Shown piece after piece: positions 854 to 7,920 of a DNA stretch of 64,000 nt (its first letter is position 1; every line of letters starts with the position of its first letter). Below the pieces are notes generated by a model that searched no databases, was not told where the DNA came from, and saw only the letters and a program-made list of their open reading frames with translations. The translations under genes and the position numbers were made by a program. The stretch covers positions 13,608 to 77,607 of the forward strand of contig JACPCS010000104.1 of the NCBI GenBank assembly GCA_016184455.1, given 5' to 3'. This DNA is from Acidobacteriota bacterium. GTDB taxonomy: Bacteria; Acidobacteriota; Vicinamibacteria; Vicinamibacterales; UBA2999.

Positions 854-1672
854 ATGGCGTCACAGGCTCCCAAGCTGCTCGACCGCGTGCGCGAGGCGAT
901 TCGTACCCGCCATTACAGCCGGCGGACCGAAGAGGCCTACGTCTACTGGATCCGCCGCTACATCCTCTTCCATCGCAAGACACATCCCTCCCAAATGGGC
1001 GTCACGGAAATCTCGCGGTTTCTGACGTTTCTCGCGGTCGACCAACACGTCAGCGCCTCCACACAGAATCAAGCACTCAGTGCGCTGCTGTTTCTCTATA
1101 AACACGTGTTGGCGATGTCCATCGGCGACATTCCACCGGTTGTGCGGGCGCGTACGCCGGAACGGTTGCCGGTAGTGCTCAACCGAGACGAGGTCGGCGC
1201 GCTCCTCAAGCAGCTCACCGGCACGGAGCGGCTGGTGGTGATGCTGCTCTACGGCGCCGGGCTCCGTCTCGAAGAATGTCTCGAGCTTCGGGTCAAGGAT
1301 CTCGACTTCGATCGCCAGCAGATCGTCGTGCGGCAAGGGAAGGGCCGGAAGGATCGGGTGACGATGCTGCCGGCGGCGGCGAGGGAGGCGCTGAACGCGC
1401 ACCTGGCGCGGGTGCGTCAGATGCATGAAGTCGATGTGGCGCGAGGGTTAGGGCGGGTCGTCCTGCCCTTCGCGGTGGCTCGGAAGTATTCGAATGCGGC
1501 CACTGAGTGGCGGTGGCAATTCGTGTTTCCGGCAGCGCGCATCTGTCGGGATCCGCGATGGGGTGCGCCGTCGCGGTATCGCCTGCACGAGTCGGTGATC
1601 CAGAAGGCCGTGGCCGGCGCAGCGCGGCAGGTCGGCCTCACGAAACGGGTTGGCCCACACACGATGCGTCAC
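854..1672 (+). pseudogene. intI: Integron integrase IntI, 3'-truncated by RIT insertion
   Basis: Starts MASQAPKLLDRVREAIRTRHYSRRTEEAYVYWIRRYILFH. The IntI hallmark extra domain is present (LPFAVARKYSNAATEWRWQFVFPAARICRDPRWGAPSRYRLHES). Homology stops at GPHTMRH (Box II). The Box II tail and the catalytic Tyr are missing. The 653-2017 ORF reads through into the RIT end. Confidence 0.85.
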
Positions 1673-1696
1673 TATGCCGCGTCCCGGACTATGCCG
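1667..1696. repeat. RIT-2 terminal repeat CGTCACTATGCCGCGTCCCGGACTATGCCG
   Basis: 25/30 identical to the RIT-1 IR (2998-3027). Its inner 12-mer CGGACTATGCCG (1685-1696) has a perfect inverted copy CGGCATAGTCCG at 1768-1779, just downstream of the ritC stop. This is the same architecture as RIT-1. Confidence 0.7.
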
Positions 1697-1783
1697 CGTC
1701 GTCGCGGGAGAATTAGACCCGGACCACGTGATGGTGGTGATTTCGGAATGGCGCTGGATCAAGGACTCGGCATAGTCCGAGGC

Positions 1784-2785
1784 TTACAACGCCTGCAGGA
1801 ACGCCAGCAGGCGATCATCGGGCCGGTAACGACCCGGCGACACGGCGTTCGCCGGAGTGGTCTTGGCCAACGCCTGTTCTTTGAGCACGAGGTCGGCGTC
1901 GAGGTACATCTGCGTGGTGTCGATGGATTCGTGCCCCAGCCAGAGTGCGATGACGGATCGATCCACTCCCGCTTGCAGCAGTTCCATCGCCGCCGAATGT
2001 CGCAGGACATGCGGTGAAACCTGCTTCTGCGTGAGCGACGGACAGTGCCGTTGGGCCGTGGCGACGTGTTTCCTCACCAGATACTGCACGCCGTCCGCAC
2101 TGAGCTGGCGTCCTCGCACGTTGGGAAACACCATGTCGCCGCTGCCGCGCCCGGGCTCCTGCAACCACGTCTTGAGCGCCTGCACGGCCTGCTTGGTGAG
2201 CGGGGTGCATCGCTCCTTGCGCCCTTTGCCGACGCAGCGGACATGCGCGCCGGTGCCCAGGGCGACATCCTCGCGACGGAGACTGGTCATCTCCGACAGT
2301 CGCAAGCCCGTTTGCACCGCGACCAGGAGGAAGACGTGGTCGCGCCGGCCCATCCACGTGTGTCGGTCAGGTGCCGCCAACACGGCGTTGATTTCCGGTT
2401 TCGTCAGGAAGCCCACCAGCTTCTTCTCGTACCGCTTACTCGGCATCGCCAGCACGCGTTGGATGAGCCCAGACTGGGCGGGGTCTTCGAACGCCGCGTA
2501 GCGGAAGAATGACCGGATGGCGGTCAGACGCAGATTGCGGCTTCGGGCGCTATTGCCACGGCGTGTCTCTAGCCCGTCGAGGAAGGCGCCGATCAACGCG
2601 GGATCGAGATCCGCGAGCGCCAGCGCGGACGGCGATTTGTGCAGCCGCTGGCCGGCAAACTGCAGCAGCAAACGAAACGTGTCCCGGTAGGACGCGATGG
2701 TATGCGGACTGGCTTGGCGCTGCGCCGTCAGCCGTTGCGTAAAGAACCGCTCCAACAAGGTCGAGAAGCTGAGGTCAGTCTTCAT
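1784..2785 (-). CDS. ritC: Tyrosine recombinase RitC (RIT element 2)
   Basis: 333 aa, colinear with ritC-1 (MKTDLSFSTLLERFFTQRLTAQRQASPHTIASYRDTF vs MIAASFQSLLQGFFTDRLLRQRQASPHTIAGYRDTF). Catalytic blocks are present: GLRLSE, GKGRKER, HVLRHS, LGHESIDTTQMY. It overlaps the ritB-2 stop by 11 nt. Confidence 0.85.
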   Translation of the reverse strand: MKTDLSFSTLLERFFTQRLTAQRQASPHTIASYRDTFRLLLQFAGQRLHKSPSALALADLDPALIGAFLDGLETRRGNSARSRNLRLTAIRSFFRYAAFEDPAQSGLIQRVLAMPSKRYEKKLVGFLTKPEINAVLAAPDRHTWMGRRDHVFLLVAVQTGLRLSEMTSLRREDVALGTGAHVRCVGKGRKERCTPLTKQAVQALKTWLQEPGRGSGDMVFPNVRGRQLSADGVQYLVRKHVATAQRHCPSLTQKQVSPHVLRHSAAMELLQAGVDRSVIALWLGHESIDTTQMYLDADLVLKEQALAKTTPANAVSPGRYRPDDRLLAFLQAL

Positions 2786-2975
2786 GTGTGAGCCCCCATC
2801 GTCGTTCCAGCCGGCTGGTGGCCAGTCGCATCAGCTCCGGATGCATCGACAAATACCAGTAGGTATCGGCGACATGCGCATGGCCGAGAAAGGTGGACAA
2901 CACGGGCAATCGCCGTTCGATGTCCTCATGGGCGCGATACCACTGAATCAGTGTGTTGACGGCGAATCGATGCCG
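2775..2975 (-). pseudogene. ritB: ritB (RIT element 2), C-terminal fragment
   Basis: Encodes RHRFAVNTLIQWYRAHEDIERRLPVLSTFLGHAHVADTYWYLSMHPELMRLATSRLE, which matches the ritB-1 C-terminus (RHRFAAQTLIAWYRAGVDVERELPKLSTYLGHVHTADTYWYLEAIPELL). Confidence 0.8.
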
Positions 2976-2976
2976 C

Positions 2977-2996
2977 TTATGCCGGATCCGGCATAA
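2977..2996. repeat. Perfect 20-bp palindrome TTATGCCGGATCCGGCATAA at the ritC-side junction of RIT-1
   Basis: Self-complementary on direct reading. It consists of two inverted copies of the TTATGCCGG sub-motif found in the RIT ends. Confidence 0.9.
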
Positions 2997-2997
2997 T

Positions 2998-3027
2998 CGG
3001 CAGCATGCCGGGTCCCGGATTATGCCG
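2998..3027. repeat. RIT-1 inverted repeat (ritC side) CGGCAGCATGCCGGGTCCCGGATTATGCCG
   Basis: Its exact reverse complement is at 5947-5976. A further CCGGCATAAT copy lies at 3089-3098, overlapping the ritC stop. Confidence 0.9.
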
Positions 3028-3097
3028 CGGGTTGCCATGTTGCTTGAGAGAAATCCCGATGGATCCCGTGAATGCGATGGCTGTCGACCCGGCATAA

Positions 3098-4093
3098 TCA
3101 CAAGCTCTCCAAGAAGCGCAGCAGCTGGTCCTCGGGCCGATAGCGAGAGGGTTTAACGCCGAGCGGCTCCACGCGTGACAGCGCCTGCTCCTTCAAGCGC
3201 AGGTCCGCGTGCAGATACATCTGGGTCGTTTCGACGGACTCATGGCCCAGCCAGAGCGCGATCACGGATTGGTCGACTCCATGGGCACGCAGCCTCATCG
3301 CGGACGAATGTCGAAGCACATGAGGACTGACCGTCTTCTGTTTCAAGGAGGGACAGGCGTGTTGGGCGCGCTCTGCGTGACGGGCGACGAGTTCTTCGAC
3401 CGCATCGCGACTGAGCGGCCGACCGCGAATGCTGAGAAACACGCGCTCACTCTGCGCCGGCAGATCCTGTCGCAGCCAGGTCTGCAGAACGGCGGCCGTG
3501 TCGCAGCCGAGCGGAGTGCAACGCTGTTTCCGCCCCTTGCCCTCGCACCGCACGTGTGCGCCAGTGCCCAGGACCACGTCCTCGCGCCGGAGGCCGATCA
3601 ATTCCGAGACGCGCAGACCCGTCTGGAACGCGACGGCCAGGAGGGTTCGGTCGCGCCGGCCGATCCACGTCGACCGATCGGGAGCGGCGAGGACGGCGGT
3701 GATCTCCGCGTCGTCGAGAAACGCGATGGGTTTGCGCTGGTGGCGTTTGCTGGGCATGGCGAGGACCTGTTGGCACAGCAAGGCGTGCGCCGGTTCGGCG
3801 AGCGCGACATACCGAAAGAACGAGTGAATCGCGGCCAGACGCGCATTGCGGGTCCGACTGGTGTTGCCGCGCCGCTGCTCCAGATGCTCGAGAAACCTCC
3901 CGACGAACGCGGGCGCGAAATCCTCCGTTTTCAACAGGAAGGGGGCCTTGCCCAGCTGGTCGGCGGCGAAGCGCAGGAGCAGCCGAAAGGTATCGCGATA
4001 GCCGGCGATTGTATGCGGGCTCGCCTGCCGCTGTCGGAGTAAGCGGTCGGTGAAGAAGCCCTGCAAGAGCGATTGAAAACTCGCGGCGATCAT
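3098..4093 (-). CDS. ritC: Tyrosine recombinase RitC (RIT element 1)
   Basis: 331 aa from ATG 4093, in an ATGA overlap with the ritB stop. Catalytic blocks are present: GLRVSE, GKGRKQR, HVLRHS, LGHESVETTQMY. The longer 3098-4390 ORF is an upstream run-on. Confidence 0.85.
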   Translation of the reverse strand: MIAASFQSLLQGFFTDRLLRQRQASPHTIAGYRDTFRLLLRFAADQLGKAPFLLKTEDFAPAFVGRFLEHLEQRRGNTSRTRNARLAAIHSFFRYVALAEPAHALLCQQVLAMPSKRHQRKPIAFLDDAEITAVLAAPDRSTWIGRRDRTLLAVAFQTGLRVSELIGLRREDVVLGTGAHVRCEGKGRKQRCTPLGCDTAAVLQTWLRQDLPAQSERVFLSIRGRPLSRDAVEELVARHAERAQHACPSLKQKTVSPHVLRHSSAMRLRAHGVDQSVIALWLGHESVETTQMYLHADLRLKEQALSRVEPLGVKPSRYRPEDQLLRFLESL

Positions 4094-5037
4094 GGCGTGA
4101 CCTCCGGTGGGGTCGGCGTCAGGCGCTCCGCCGCGAGCTGCAGCAGCTCGGGAATCGCTTCGAGATACCAGTATGTGTCGGCGGTGTGTACGTGCCCGAG
4201 ATACGTCGACAGTTTTGGGAGCTCGCGCTCCACATCGACGCCGGCCCGGTACCACGCGATCAAGGTCTGAGCCGCGAATCGATGCCGTAGGTCCTGAATG
4301 CGTGGCCCGCGCCCGTGGCGGCCCCCGCTGGTCGGTGGCCGCAACCCGACCGTGCGGGAGACGACCGCGAAGGTGTACCGCGTGATCCATTCCGTGATAC
4401 GAGTGCGTCGTTCCGACACGAAGAAGGCCGGGGTCACCGGCCGGGGCACCATCTGATCTCTCGCCTCGCCGTACGCCCGCAACGCCTCCTGCGTCGTGGG
4501 GTGGATCGGGACCAGTCGAGACTTCCCGAATTTCGTCCGCCGAATCAGGAGCACGCCCGCTTCAAGGTCGACATCCGATCGATCGAGATGGAGCGCTTCG
4601 TTGATCCGCAGGCCGGTCACCGCCAGGAGTCCAAACAGCGTGGCATAGGTACGCCCCCGGAGTTTCTTGACGGACGGGAGGGCGGCGGCGCTCTGGATCA
4701 GGCGGACGACGTCCTGATCGCGATAGAGCCGTGGCGGTTTCCGACGGTACCGCTGACCGACCAAGTCCGCGGGCGGCACCTCGGTGCGCGGATCAGATGC
4801 GCGGCGCCACACGGCGAAGCGGCGCGCGATGCTCAAGCGCCCGGCCCACGTGCTGGGCTGAGCGTCGGTGGGTTGAAGCGCCCATTGGCGTGCCAGATCG
4901 ATGGTGATGAACGGACTGCCCACCTGATCCACATACGCCACGAAGGTTCGGAGGAGACTCGCCGGCAGGCGGTCGACAAACGCCAGGGCGCGGCGCATGG
5001 CGAGGTACTGGGTGAGGGCGTCGGAGAGGTCGCTCAT
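4090..5037 (-). CDS. ritB: Tyrosine recombinase RitB (RIT element 1)
   Basis: 315 aa from ATG 5037, in an ATGA overlap with the ritA stop. Catalytic blocks are present: TGLRINE, KFGKSRLVP, DLRHRF, LGHVHTADTYWY. Confidence 0.85.
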   Translation of the reverse strand: MSDLSDALTQYLAMRRALAFVDRLPASLLRTFVAYVDQVGSPFITIDLARQWALQPTDAQPSTWAGRLSIARRFAVWRRASDPRTEVPPADLVGQRYRRKPPRLYRDQDVVRLIQSAAALPSVKKLRGRTYATLFGLLAVTGLRINEALHLDRSDVDLEAGVLLIRRTKFGKSRLVPIHPTTQEALRAYGEARDQMVPRPVTPAFFVSERRTRITEWITRYTFAVVSRTVGLRPPTSGGRHGRGPRIQDLRHRFAAQTLIAWYRAGVDVERELPKLSTYLGHVHTADTYWYLEAIPELLQLAAERLTPTPPEVTP

Positions 5038-5830
5038 TGCGCACCTCCCATCAGGGGCCACGGTTGGGCGAGCGCGCGCAATCCCGCGAGATCCACCTTG
5101 GCGTAAATCTCCGTGGTCTGCACGGCACGATGCCGCAGCACGAGGCCGATCTCCGGCAGCGAGGCACCCTGACGCAGCATGCGGGTCGCGAGACTGTGTC
5201 GGAGCAGGTGGGCGCCTTTGAGCGAGGGCGACAGGCCGGCCCGCGCCAGCGCCCGTCGCACGATCGTGCTCACTGTGCTCGGATGGCCGGGACTCATCGT
5301 GTGCGCATGACGGATCACAAACGTCGTGATCGTCGACACGTCGAGCGCTCGCAAATCCAGCGGGCCGTCGCCGAACCGATCGGTGAGAAACCACCGCAAC
5401 ACCTCGCTATAGTTCGTCACCGTGGATGGTGCGAGGCCCCGCTCGGCCCTCAGGTGCTGCTCGTAGTGTCGCTGCAGCTGGCTCAAGGGAGATTCGTCGA
5501 TGCTCGGTGCGGGTGAAGCGACCACACCTCGCGCTCGGAGATGGGTGAGAAATTGATGGAGCGTCGCCGCATGGCCCCGGTGCAACCGTCCGCGGCGCTT
5601 GCGGTCGTTGACAAACGTGCCGACCAACTCGTCATTCAGCTCGTGAATGCCGCATCCACGACGAGTCAGCCACTGGCTGAAGTGCCCGAGCAGGGTGAGC
5701 TGTCACGAATCGTCGTGGCGGCGTACTCGCACTGGGCGAGATGCGTCGCGAACGAGTCGAGCTGCGAGCCGATGCCCCCTGATCGCAGCCACCGAACCGT
5801 GTCGCGATTCTCGATGAAGTGATCCAGCAT
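5034..5830 (-). pseudogene. ritA: ritA (RIT element 1): frameshifted and internally deleted
   Basis: ATG at 5830 is preceded by GGAGGAG. The product starts MLDHFIENRDTVRWLRSGGIGSQLDSFATHLAQCEYAATTIRD. The frame then shifts near 5705 to QLTLLGHFSQWLTRRGC... The span length is not a multiple of 3. After the N-terminal domain the sequence jumps from HTMSPG straight to STIVRRALARAGL..HLLRHS..EIYAKV, so the Arg-I and Lys blocks are missing. Confidence 0.7.
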
Positions 5831-5946
5831 GTCTCCTCCGTTCCCGGCCAAAGAGCCGTGCGGAAGAAGACAGCCGGATTATGCCGACTTGGCAAGGACC
5901 AACTCTGACCGTACAGGCACGGAAGAGCCATCTCCCACGCTGAACC

Positions 5947-5976
5947 CGGCATAATCCGGGACCCGGCATGCTGCCG
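5947..5976. repeat. RIT-1 inverted repeat (ritA side)
   Basis: CGGCATAATCCGGGACCCGGCATGCTGCCG is the exact reverse complement of 2998-3027. A subterminal CCGGATTATGCCG copy lies at 5874-5886. Confidence 0.9.
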
Positions 5977-6590
5977 AAAATCATGAATCCGCGGACCCGT
6001 GTGGTCGGTTGGGCCCCGCAAACCAGTCCGACGCGACAGGTCGTAGAACGTCCGGTGCACGGCGGAGATCTCCAGACGTCGCCCACGATCGGTGAGGAGA
6101 AAGGCCGGTGAGGTGGGATGCGGCACCACGCGGTCCCGCCGTCCGGCATACGCGATGAAGACCTCCTGCGTGGAGGCATGGAGCGGAATCAGTCGCATCT
6201 TGTTGAATTTGGTCTTGCGGATCGTGAGCAGCCCGTCGTGGAGATTCACATCGTGTCGGTCCAAGCTGATCGCCTCGCTAATACGGATCCCACTCACCAC
6301 GAGCAATCCGAAGAGGCAGTGGTACGTCCACGGGCGAAGGCCGTTGGTGGACGACAGCGCGTTCGTGGCCGCAAGCAATTGGCGAATCTCCTCGTCGGTG
6401 TAGAGATACGGGCGGGCGCGTCGCGCGCGAAACGGGAGCAGACCGGCCGCTGGAATTTCGGTGCGCGGATCGGTCGCGCTCCAATGGCGCGCGAACACAC
6501 GAACGAACCCGAGGCGTTGCGCCCAATCGCTGGGTTGGTGATCCACCGGCTGCATCGCCCAAGGTGCGAGACTACCTAGTGTCACGGGAG
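5977..6590 (-). pseudogene. ritB: ritB (RIT element 2), central/N-terminal fragment; its 5' end is deleted
   Basis: VTLGSLAPWAMQPVDHQPSDWAQRLGFVRVFARHW...SGIRISE...KFNKMRLIP...GPRIHDF is colinear with ritB-1 residues ~45-255. About the first 40 codons are absent. The 5632-6672 ORF is a chimeric read-through. Confidence 0.75.
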
Positions 6591-6857
6591 CACCCCGTCG
6601 GAAGCGCCAAGGCGCGGTTCTTCGCACAGCTCGGGTTCGACCAGCGAAACTGGATGGTCTTGCGAGACGCACTGCACGGCTTCGCTAGCCAGGACGCCCA
6701 GCTCGGCCCTGCGACTCGATTTGGACAGAAATACCTGGCGCACGCTACGATCACAGGACCGTCTGGACGAGCCGCCCGCATGGTGGTCGTCTGGATCATC
6801 CTCCACGGTGAAGACTTTCCGCGGTTCGTCACGGCGTATCCGGGAGCGACTGCATGA
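6564..6857 (+). CDS. DUF6883-like protein (cassette 1), probably 5'-truncated
   Basis: (V)RDYLVSREHPVGSAKARFFAQLGFDQRNW...GQKYLAHATITGPSGRAARMVVVWI...PRFVTAYP fits the DUF6883 pattern. The usual ~15 N-terminal residues are absent. It starts at a GTG directly at the RIT-2 deletion junction. Confidence 0.6.
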   Translation: MRDYLVSREHPVGSAKARFFAQLGFDQRNWMVLRDALHGFASQDAQLGPATRFGQKYLAHATITGPSGRAARMVVVWIILHGEDFPRFVTAYPGATA

Positions 6858-7342: not shown

Positions 7343-7564
7343 ATGCGGCCGGTTGATGCCTTCTACGAGAATGGCCTGCTTCGGCCAGTGTCGGAGTTGC
7401 CGCTCCGGTCGGGCGAGCGTGTTCGCGTCATCGTCGTCCGAAGGGCGGACGCCAGCCGGTGGGATTCCGCGAAGCTCGCGGCCCATCCCGACGACGATCT
7501 CGCTCTGGCGGAAGCCGGTCTCGACGAGTGGGCGGCCGCCCTTGAGCGAGAGGACCGGGGGTGA
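7343..7564 (+). CDS. DUF104-family antitoxin (cassette 2)
   Basis: MRPVDAFYENGLLRPVSELPLRSGERVRVIV is the typical DUF104 / AF2212-like N-terminus. It has a GTGA overlap with the downstream MazF gene. Confidence 0.7.
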   Translation: MRPVDAFYENGLLRPVSELPLRSGERVRVIVVRRADASRWDSAKLAAHPDDDLALAEAGLDEWAAALEREDRG

Positions 7565-7920
7565 AGCGTGGCGAAATCTGGTGGGCCGATCTTGGGCCCT
7601 ACCGTATCGGCGAACAGACCGGTCGGCGTCCGGTCATCGTCTGGCAAAGCGACACGCTGACCAGGCTACTCCAATCAGTCCTGGTTGTTCCCCTCACTAC
7701 GAATCTGGATCGGGCGAAGCTCGCAGGCACCGCCCTCGTCTCCGCTTCCGACGGCGGTCTGACCTCAGAGTCCGTGGCCATGGCGTTTCAGATGCGCGCG
7801 ATCCCCAAGGAACGCCTCAAGACGCGGATTCGTTCACTGTCGGCCGACGAACTCGCCGAATTGGAACTGGCGACTGACGAAGCGGTCGGCCGAGTCGAAC
7901 CGGAAACCGAGCTGGACTAG
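7561..7920 (+). CDS. mazF: MazF/PemK-family type II toxin endoribonuclease (cassette 2)
   Basis: KRGEIWWADLGPYRIGEQTGRRPVIVWQSD...VLVVPLTTN...SVAMAFQMRAIPKERL matches the MazF/PemK signature. Confidence 0.8.
   Translation: MKRGEIWWADLGPYRIGEQTGRRPVIVWQSDTLTRLLQSVLVVPLTTNLDRAKLAGTALVSASDGGLTSESVAMAFQMRAIPKERLKTRIRSLSADELAELELATDEAVGRVEPETELD

Follow-up and report, generated by a model that had tools for sequence, protein, structure and literature searches.

RIT elements, which carry the three tyrosine recombinase genes ritA, ritB and ritC as a trio, insert at the Arg-His codons of box II (H-x-x-R-H) in other recombinase genes, and in the lineages examined here these codons are the regular and main target. 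Two such insertions are found in 64,000 nucleotides (nt) of DNA from an Acidobacteriota bacterium (Vicinamibacterales; UBA2999; assembly GCA_016184455.1, contig JACPCS010000104.1, positions 13,608-77,607), a stretch referred to as the window. RIT-2 interrupts intI, the gene of an integron integrase, and RIT-1 is located within the ritB gene of RIT-2 (ritB-2). Very probably, RITs integrate by tyrosine-recombinase site-specific recombination into the pentamer NGNCA at box II Arg-His codons of other recombinase genes.

A preliminary description of the window had placed both breaks at these codons, and inspection of the sequence confirmed this. The break in intI is HTM^RH (the caret marks the point of insertion), with ATG followed by CGTCAC at 1667-1672, and that in ritB-2 is HDF^RH, with CGGCAG at the ritA side of RIT-1 and CGGCAT resuming at 2975-2970. 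The two insertions are also, as described, oppositely oriented relative to the target gene: the target 5' part adjoins RIT-2 at its ritC end and RIT-1 at its ritA end.

Insertions in the window and in the surveyed sequences

The reading frame of ritB-2 continues as ...PRIHDF up to 5977, where CGGCAG follows, and is resumed at 2975 with CGGCAT CGA TTC, encoding RHRF. In three Logan metagenome contigs (L002, L003 and L004) ritB-2 is unbroken at 100% identity; the two segments of the window meet there with an overlap of exactly CGGCA, the same five nucleotides that had been described on both sides of RIT-1. Positions 1-145 of L002 correspond to window 6116-5972 and its positions 141-1642 to window 2975-1474, both at 100%. 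The empty site reads ggattcatgatttt CGGCA tcgattcgcc, encoding I H D F R H R F A, and the inserted unit is 2976-5976, 3001 nt long, flanked by one extra copy of CGGCA. Contigs L001 and L005 end precisely at 2975, as expected of a polymorphic site. Because of the empty-site contigs, RIT-1 is a true, still polymorphic insertion; its mobility as a unit is evident from occupied and empty alleles of one site with flanks that are 100% identical.

Comparison of the intI product with the solved structure of VchIntIA (2A3V; E=1e-64) gives an alignment along residues 5-276, and homology stops at HTLRH. The alignment spans residues 210-270, so the extra segment specific to IntI that precedes box II is present. 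Pfam domains are PF13495 and PF00589, the latter cut at profile position 134 (3-134 of 172), and homologues carry the source name 'integron integrase'. No other piece of intI, including its 3' part of ~55 codons past RH, was detected by tblastn in the 64 kb of the window. The RIT-2 inverted repeat at 1667-1696, CGTCAC TATGCCG CG TCCCGGAC TATGCCG, starts with the Arg-His bases of intI.

Junctions between RIT ends and flanking DNA were surveyed in two sets. A scan with the inverted-repeat core gave at least 120 metagenome contigs with at least 185 junctions, among the matches listed. A scan based on RitB alignment gave 80 genomic loci (RitB identity 45-90%) in Acidobacteriota, several proteobacterial classes, Planctomycetota, Rokubacteria, Gemmatimonadota, and cultured Rhizobium, Paraburkholderia and Agrobacterium. 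Unique flanks were counted, 134 from metagenomes (among the matches listed) and 110 from reference genomes, 244 altogether, and statistics were drawn from the strict junction sets only. A looser two-site pattern of the inverted repeat was dropped, as it produced many false junctions, among them random matches and the third site inside the element close to the ritC stop. Junctions in which the inverted repeat is fused straight to the flank were assigned to class D, and those in which a palindrome is interposed between the two to class P. The criterion applied initially to D junctions, [HYQR]..R., was abandoned as too permissive because the Arg comes from the element itself; it was replaced by His at position -3 together with Pfam matches of open reading frames (ORFs) in the flanks.

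Flanks at box II make up 74 of the 134 unique metagenome flanks (among the matches listed) and 67 of the 110 from genomes of many phyla. Pooled, this is 141/244, or ~55-60%, compared to 0.2-3% expected by chance. Flanks of class P open with RH[ST][FY]A-like sequences in 61 out of 101 cases (0.2% in random sequence, p~1e-135), and His is at -3 in 66 out of 143 D flanks (2.9% in random sequence, p~1e-61). When 84 unique D-flank ORFs of at least 60 amino acids (aa) were compared with Pfam, 55 matched PF00589, 9 an ArdC-type zincin, 8 the ArdC N-domain and 2 IS256-type transposases. Targets hit at box II are integron integrases, phage- and island-type integrases, and ritB and ritC of other RITs; insertion of one RIT into another is common, since ritB-like (~13-18/84) and ritC-like (~6/84) flanks are frequent. 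The surveyed flanks represent different sequences and different recombinase families, and are thus not redundant copies of a few events.

For 25 complete insertions, with a D and a P end around one gene, removal of the element in silico resulted in a continuous ORF without exception (25/25). Five joined ORFs of the recombinase type were compared with Pfam, and in all five PF00589 is unbroken (positions 2-170 of 172). The junction core is conserved as NGNCA, mostly CGNCA. The preliminary description had suggested that RIT recombinases recognize CGN-CAY within the sequence coding for HxxRH, as pseudo-sites. The survey bears out the recognized sequence, with respect to both the conserved core and the enrichment of box II, while the term pseudo-site does not apply, as these are the main attachment sites of the lineages studied.

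A palindrome of 22 nt was observed at 71/180 metagenome junctions (among the matches listed) and at 49/112 genome junctions. Its length is always 22 nt (~120 junctions besides the one in the window), and wherever the flanks represent two halves of one gene it is on the side of the target 3' part. The same pattern is found in three relatives of RitB-1 (77-86%). The target 5' parts end there with LHDF^RR, IPHDL^RR, FHDL^RQ and LHDL^RQ in different integrase genes, the CGN triplet after the 5' part opens the inverted repeat, and the target restarts beyond the palindrome with CGG CGC ACG (RRTAVRN) or CGT CAC ACG (RHTVITE). Neighbours of these close relatives are excisionase-like HTH_17 genes and an arm-binding P4-type integrase.

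Genes similar to intI are hit recurrently. The three closest homologues of intI (89-90% identical) are all interrupted by RITs at RH and annotated with a read-through into the repeat, as ...HTMRH-YAESQTMP and ...HTLRH-HADCRIMP, the second belonging to another RIT lineage. Several further targets are IntI-like, with 44-73% identity to intI of the window. In one of the three closest homologues, from an acidobacterial genome (L234), the layout is intact, consisting of the intI 5' part, ATG^CGTCAC^TATGCCG of the inverted repeat, ritC, ritB, ritA and inverted repeat'. At the far end, inverted repeat' is followed by GTGGCG, CCTATGCCGCATCCGGCATAGG and CGTCAC AGC TTT GCG, encoding RHSFA and running on to ...Y; this end corresponds to what the window has lost. 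Three copies of one RIT (L184, L185 and L186) were observed in a single deltaproteobacterial metagenome-assembled genome, each in a different IntI-like gene at HTF^RH.

Nesting was also found on the finished plasmid pHG1, where ritC of an outer RIT is interrupted at ITPHTL^RH by an inner RIT of another lineage. This outer RIT (L232) is inserted in an IS66 transposase gene at ISNNA^ENQIRP; it, too, possesses a palindrome of 22 nt, and its hexamer is CCGCGT. Hits of rit elements in IS66 and radC were noted in the CH34 genome paper (PMC2864759).

Other lineages use other motifs, and their insertions have the same architecture. The ArdC lineage, mostly from Alphaproteobacteria, is inserted in the HExxH motif at LLHEL^TH WTGH (L200, L205, L209, L217 and L229-L231), the IS256 lineage in a transposase at QRCx^VHKxRN (L089, L112 and L132), and one element in an IS3-type rve transposase at LDVF^SRYVTGW (L175). 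Two loci (L168 and L220) share the site GFEGC^RFAIGxRN in a gene family without assignment. The hexamers accord with the target, being ACGCAT for ArdC, GTCCAT/ATCCAT for IS256 and AGCCGG for IS3, and the ATGCCG repeats remain unchanged; the complementarity of the end motif TATGCCG to CGG-CAT-A, to which the preliminary description drew attention, is therefore probably incidental. All recognized target classes are genes of mobile elements.

At several unrelated loci, a conserved terminus foreign to RITs, (T)ACCGCGnAGCGG(T/C)TTAGTCCAAY, which includes a small hairpin, was observed directly against the RIT hexamer or palindrome (L032:944-965, L069, L101, L116:114-135, L172:2633-2654 and L210:10132). 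It was considered as the end of a group II intron, and the sequence (...ACCGCGnAGCGGTTTAGTCCAAY) had no Rfam match at the gathering score. Another element may terminate here, one that either inserts next to RIT ends or serves them as a target.

Proposed mechanism of integration

The order within the unit is hexamer X, inverted repeat, ritA ritB ritC, inverted repeat', hexamer Y' and the 22-nt palindrome, and the target hexamer Z stands next to it. The target 5' part is fused straight to one of the inverted repeats, in either orientation. Positions 4-5 of the hexamer (CA) are the same in X, Y and Z in all complete insertions (25/25). Position 6 belongs to the element, because X equals Y in 25/25 of them but X equals Z in only 7/25. 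Agreement at position 3 is only ~60%, and positions 1-3, the Arg codon, may differ; triplets found at the element ends are CGG, CGC, CGA, CGT, AGG and AGA (CGN and AGR).

These patterns are consistent with a model in which positions 1-5 would be exchanged, identity being needed only at CA and mismatches in the Arg codon being tolerated. Each integration or excision would leave a heteroduplex that segregates to the triplet of either the element or the target. The element would thus carry the codon of its previous target onward as a coupling sequence, representing a record of earlier targets.

The element is proposed to excise as a circle, or to act as a tandem. The joined ends would form a palindrome of ~82 nt with six ATGCCG sites, composed of inverted repeat', hexamer', palindrome, hexamer and inverted repeat. 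This junction would offer two mirror-image crossover sites, each a CGGCATA/YATGCCG pair with a spacer of ~8 bp holding the hexamer, and the choice between them would determine the orientation and the end that keeps the palindrome. Use of either mirror-image site would account for the occurrence of both orientations and for the palindrome beside the target 3' part. One contig, L094:53-134, has the predicted arrangement of joined ends, inverted repeat'-GTGTCG-CCTATGCCGCATCCGGCATAGG-CGGCAT-inverted repeat.

Conservation in the target logo is restricted to codon positions 1-2 (CAY nnn nTn ^ CGn CAY nCn TTy GCn). Recognition would accordingly involve reading of non-wobble positions over ~27 bp, in which ~16-18 specified bases would suffice for specificity. 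The three recombinases might share this work among them.

Alternative explanations and known systems

The window alone contains only two events, and CGGCA is frequent in GC-rich DNA; the preliminary description had itself allowed for coincidence. That RITs enter any CGNCA-like pentamer and struck two recombinase genes of the window by chance has practically no probability left, as the survey excludes chance with box II flanks from unrelated samples and phyla and with PF00589 in most flank ORFs. It could also be argued that the Arg-His flanks belong to the element, so that RIT tips carry recombinase remnants and nothing is interrupted: the RIT-2 terminus is translated as box II-like RHYAASR, and elements with 5' flanks on both sides exist (L024, L082, pHG1). 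This is extremely improbable, given that for RIT-1 it is refuted by the empty site in L002-L004, that flanks come from many families (IntI-like, RitA, RitB, RitC and arm-binding integrases with Xis-like neighbours), and that joined flanks restore the full PF00589 domain. Rearrangement driven by homology between similar box II DNA of rit and target genes would be in line with targets that are often rit genes and with mirrored structures such as those in pHG1. We consider it very unlikely, since junctions are always at the tips of inverted repeats and never within genes of the incoming element, element and target share no more than 2-5 nt of identical sequence, and ArdC, IS256, IS3 and IS66 targets show the same architecture.

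A different question is what the targeting means. It may provide a safe, conserved landing pad on mobile DNA which allows hitch-hiking, instead of being an attack on rivals, and we give this reading an even chance. All recognized targets are mobile-element genes (integrases by HTH_17, integron integrases, ArdC, IS256/IS3/IS66; PMC2864759), and the motifs hit are the least free to vary, which maximizes the usable sites across hosts; on the other hand, insertion destroys the carrier's own mover, integrase or transposase, and this limits hitch-hiking. A harmless conserved landing site and inactivation of competing recombinases are equally good readings. The odds are likewise balanced for the broader view that RITs are widespread 'motif-homing' transposons, each lineage inserting at codons for an invariant motif of a mobile-element enzyme (perhaps also radC), reading non-wobble positions, carrying the codon of the last target and in effect parasitizing and disabling other mobile elements. 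If so, RITs would naturally keep integrons, prophages, islands and insertion sequences in check.

Several observations weigh against integration by site-specific recombination at box II as proposed above. In ~40% of cases the unique flank is something other than box II, namely another target motif, unassigned sequence or the terminus of another element. In the target-logo comparison, target arms were unlike the ATGCCG arms of the element. This also limits the view of the preliminary description that element termini mimic the Arg-His codons: the hexamer does match the target, but it appears to be exchanged and carried, which is more than mimicry. The circle rests on the single contig L094, equally readable as a tandem. 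Many elements have two 5' parts (L024, L082, L110, pHG1) or two palindromes and two 3' parts (L016); these fit recombination between inverted copies, and in metagenomes may be chimeric assemblies. Transposition of RITs was never reproduced experimentally (PMC10214605). In addition, RitA-1 is defective, and RIT-1 could not have moved by itself unless decay followed insertion.

With respect to the last point, RIT-1 was probably mobilized in trans or decayed very recently, because its ritA is defective and yet the insertion is polymorphic among near-identical genomes. In ritA-1, compared with L152 (Vicinamibacteraceae, RIT DNA ~88% identical; blastn) and with RitA of L006 (tblastn), the deletion removes RitA residues ~190-333, most of the catalytic domain, the intact protein being 413 aa long. 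Miniature RIT derivatives of 340-370 nt without genes were found at box II of recombinases (L060:84-455, L044:66-407 and L142:1295-1647). They keep both inverted repeats, third sites and the palindrome, and are for the RIT family what miniature inverted-repeat transposable elements are for others. As these derivatives are located at box II, non-autonomous RIT copies do move.

In CTnDOT and Tn916, heterology in the overlap is tolerated, a short identical dinucleotide lies by one cleavage site, and flank bases are carried onward. Unlike RITs, these elements have a single integrase, arm-type sites and targets of loose consensus rather than codons of a catalytic motif. Tn554 is inserted in radC. 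Tn554, SE and GInt-ILE elements resemble RITs in combining several tyrosine recombinases, in gene-specific integration and in the lack of classical target duplication. They differ in requiring a fourth, non-recombinase protein (TnpC, Srap or GinD) and in carrying cargo. No fourth conserved gene was found between the inverted repeats in ~100 RIT elements, which have, in contrast to Tn554/SE/GInt, three recombinases only, symmetrical inverted repeats, a palindromic joint and both orientations. The target of ILE/GInt is rulB (PMC4542609), and in Tn554/SE elements the new site receives a copy of ~6 bp of the donor flank (PMC10214605). The carry-over of ~6 bp without true duplication is encountered in RITs as well, as deduced from the static junction hexamers X, Y and Z. 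Inteins and group I/II introns offer an analogy only: their insertion point, too, lies where a widespread gene family is most conserved, which makes sites available in many hosts, but by splicing out they keep the host gene functional, whereas insertion of a RIT breaks up the host gene and depends on a recombinase instead of an endonuclease or reverse transcriptase.

RIT elements have been described as ritA-ritB-ritC trios of ~3.4 kb with terminal inverted repeats of ~30 bp, present in multiple copies, with nested and truncated RIT 'mazes' in pHG1 and isolated hits in radC (twice), IS66 tnpA and a Tn6049-like transposase (Van Houdt 2009/2012; PMC3414803, PMC2864759). An 'overlapping palindromic sequence' of RIT was judged unconvincing (PMC3414803), and Table 1 of a 2023 comparison gives RIT target specificity as 'not tested' (PMC10214605). 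Elements in the window are like known RITs in gene order, 4-nt overlaps, inverted repeats, the palindrome and nesting. The elements themselves are known. Novelty appears to lie in the target rule, in the boundary of the element and in the coupling hexamer: a literature search, with the main RIT survey (Ricker 2013) outside its reach, disclosed no report of box II targeting, a one-sided 22-nt palindrome or a carried hexamer.

RITs are common across bacterial phyla, and how and where they move has been an open question since 2009. A defined target and boundary together with a predicted circular junction make their movement experimentally testable. Box II targeting explains many annotations such as 'truncated integrase' and 'maze of recombinase genes', and identifies RIT insertion as a natural cause by which integron integrases are repeatedly inactivated. 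The targeting points to recombinases that read a protein-coding motif through codon degeneracy, which bears on specificity and possibly on tool design.

Organization of the window

Features of the two elements and their targets are listed in Table 1. RIT-1 has ritA, ritB and ritC in order, with 4-nt overlaps, and the corresponding genes of its relatives encode 413, 315 and 331 aa. Genes A and C have PF02899 and PF00589 and gene B has PF00589 alone, each gene belonging to a subfamily of its own (RitA, RitB, RitC); the catalytic signature of RitB is HDLRH and LGH..Y. The inverted-repeat arms of RIT-1 are 2983-3027 and 5947-5991, in agreement with terminal repeats of ~30 bp, and the 24-nt core of the inverted repeat has three copies in the window compared to none expected. 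A third site follows each repeat, at 3090-3096 (inverted) and 5880-5886 at the ritC and ritA sides of RIT-1, and at 1768-1774 (inverted) at the ritC side of RIT-2. The palindrome of RIT-1, with the layout C TTATGCCG GATC CGGCATAA T, is made of two inverted ATGCCG sites; placed between the ritC-side inverted repeat and the resumed ritB-2, it was overlooked in the preliminary description.

Table 1. Coordinates of RIT-1, RIT-2 and their target genes in the window
Feature	Position	Strand	Remarks
intI, 5' part	854..1666	+	integron integrase, target of RIT-2; ends ...GPHTM (ATG 1664-1666)
RIT-2 crossover (coupling) hexamer X	1667..1672	+	CGTCAC; reads as intI Arg-His codons
RIT-2 ritC-side inverted-repeat core	1673..1696	+	direct TATGCCG sites 1673-1679 and 1690-1696
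ritC-2	1784..2785	-	ORF, 333 aa, intact; 62% identical to RitC-1
ritB-2, 3' part	2775..2975	-	starts CGGCAT = Arg-His (2975-2970), then RFAVNTLIQWY...
RIT-1 22-nt palindrome	2976..2997	.	C TTATGCCGGATCCGGCATAA T; within the 3001-nt insert, at one end only
RIT-1 ritC-side inverted repeat	2998..3027	+	hexamer Y CGGCAG (2998-3003), CATGCCG GG TCCCGGAT TATGCCG
ritC-1	3098..4093	-	ORF, 331 aa, intact
ritB-1	4090..5037	-	315 aa, intact; PF00589; 4-nt overlaps with ritC-1 and ritA-1
ritA-1	5034..5830	-	degenerate; frameshift near 5700 and ~428-nt deletion
RIT-1 ritA-side inverted repeat	5947..5976	-	hexamer X CGGCAG (5976-5971), joined straight to ritB-2 Phe
ritB-2, 5' part	5977..6566	-	ends ...GPRIHDF (Phe TTT 5979-5977)

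Between RIT-1 and RIT-2, RitC is 62% and RitB 49-68% identical. Searches with the RitB-1 protein revealed thousands of homologues, and an exact-protein look-up of RitC-1 gave no record. The exact RitC-2 protein (PF02899 and PF00589) is found in five short Logan contigs of one study.

RIT-2 retains ritB and ritC only, and ritB-2 is truncated at ~6566, its first ~45 codons being gone. No ritA-2, far end of RIT-2, further inverted-repeat core or other rit or intI fragment was found in the 64-kb window. From this arrangement, ritA-2, the start of ritB-2, the far end of RIT-2 and the intI 3' part are taken to have been lost by deletion. The deletion joint at ~6560-6575 fuses the 5'-truncated ritB-2 with a small cassette-like ORF (6564-6857), also truncated at its 5' end. 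In the suggested history of the window, RIT-2 would have disrupted the integron integrase first, the defective and probably trans-mobilized RIT-1 would then have entered ritB of RIT-2, and a later deletion would have removed ritA-2 and the remaining part of intI.

Downstream of intI, on the same strand, segment 6564-8950 looks like a small integron cassette array. It is comprised of short ORFs separated by three similar imperfect palindromes of ~70 nt (GGAGCCGACGCGC...GCGCGGCTC), at ~7112, 7948 and 8881. Only three exact copies of the attC-like repeat GGAGCCGACGCGC were found in the window, and its occurrence with two mismatches was not above chance. In the same segment, the ORF pair 7343-7564 and 7561-7920 resembles, by eye only, an antitoxin and a toxin of the PemK/MazF type.

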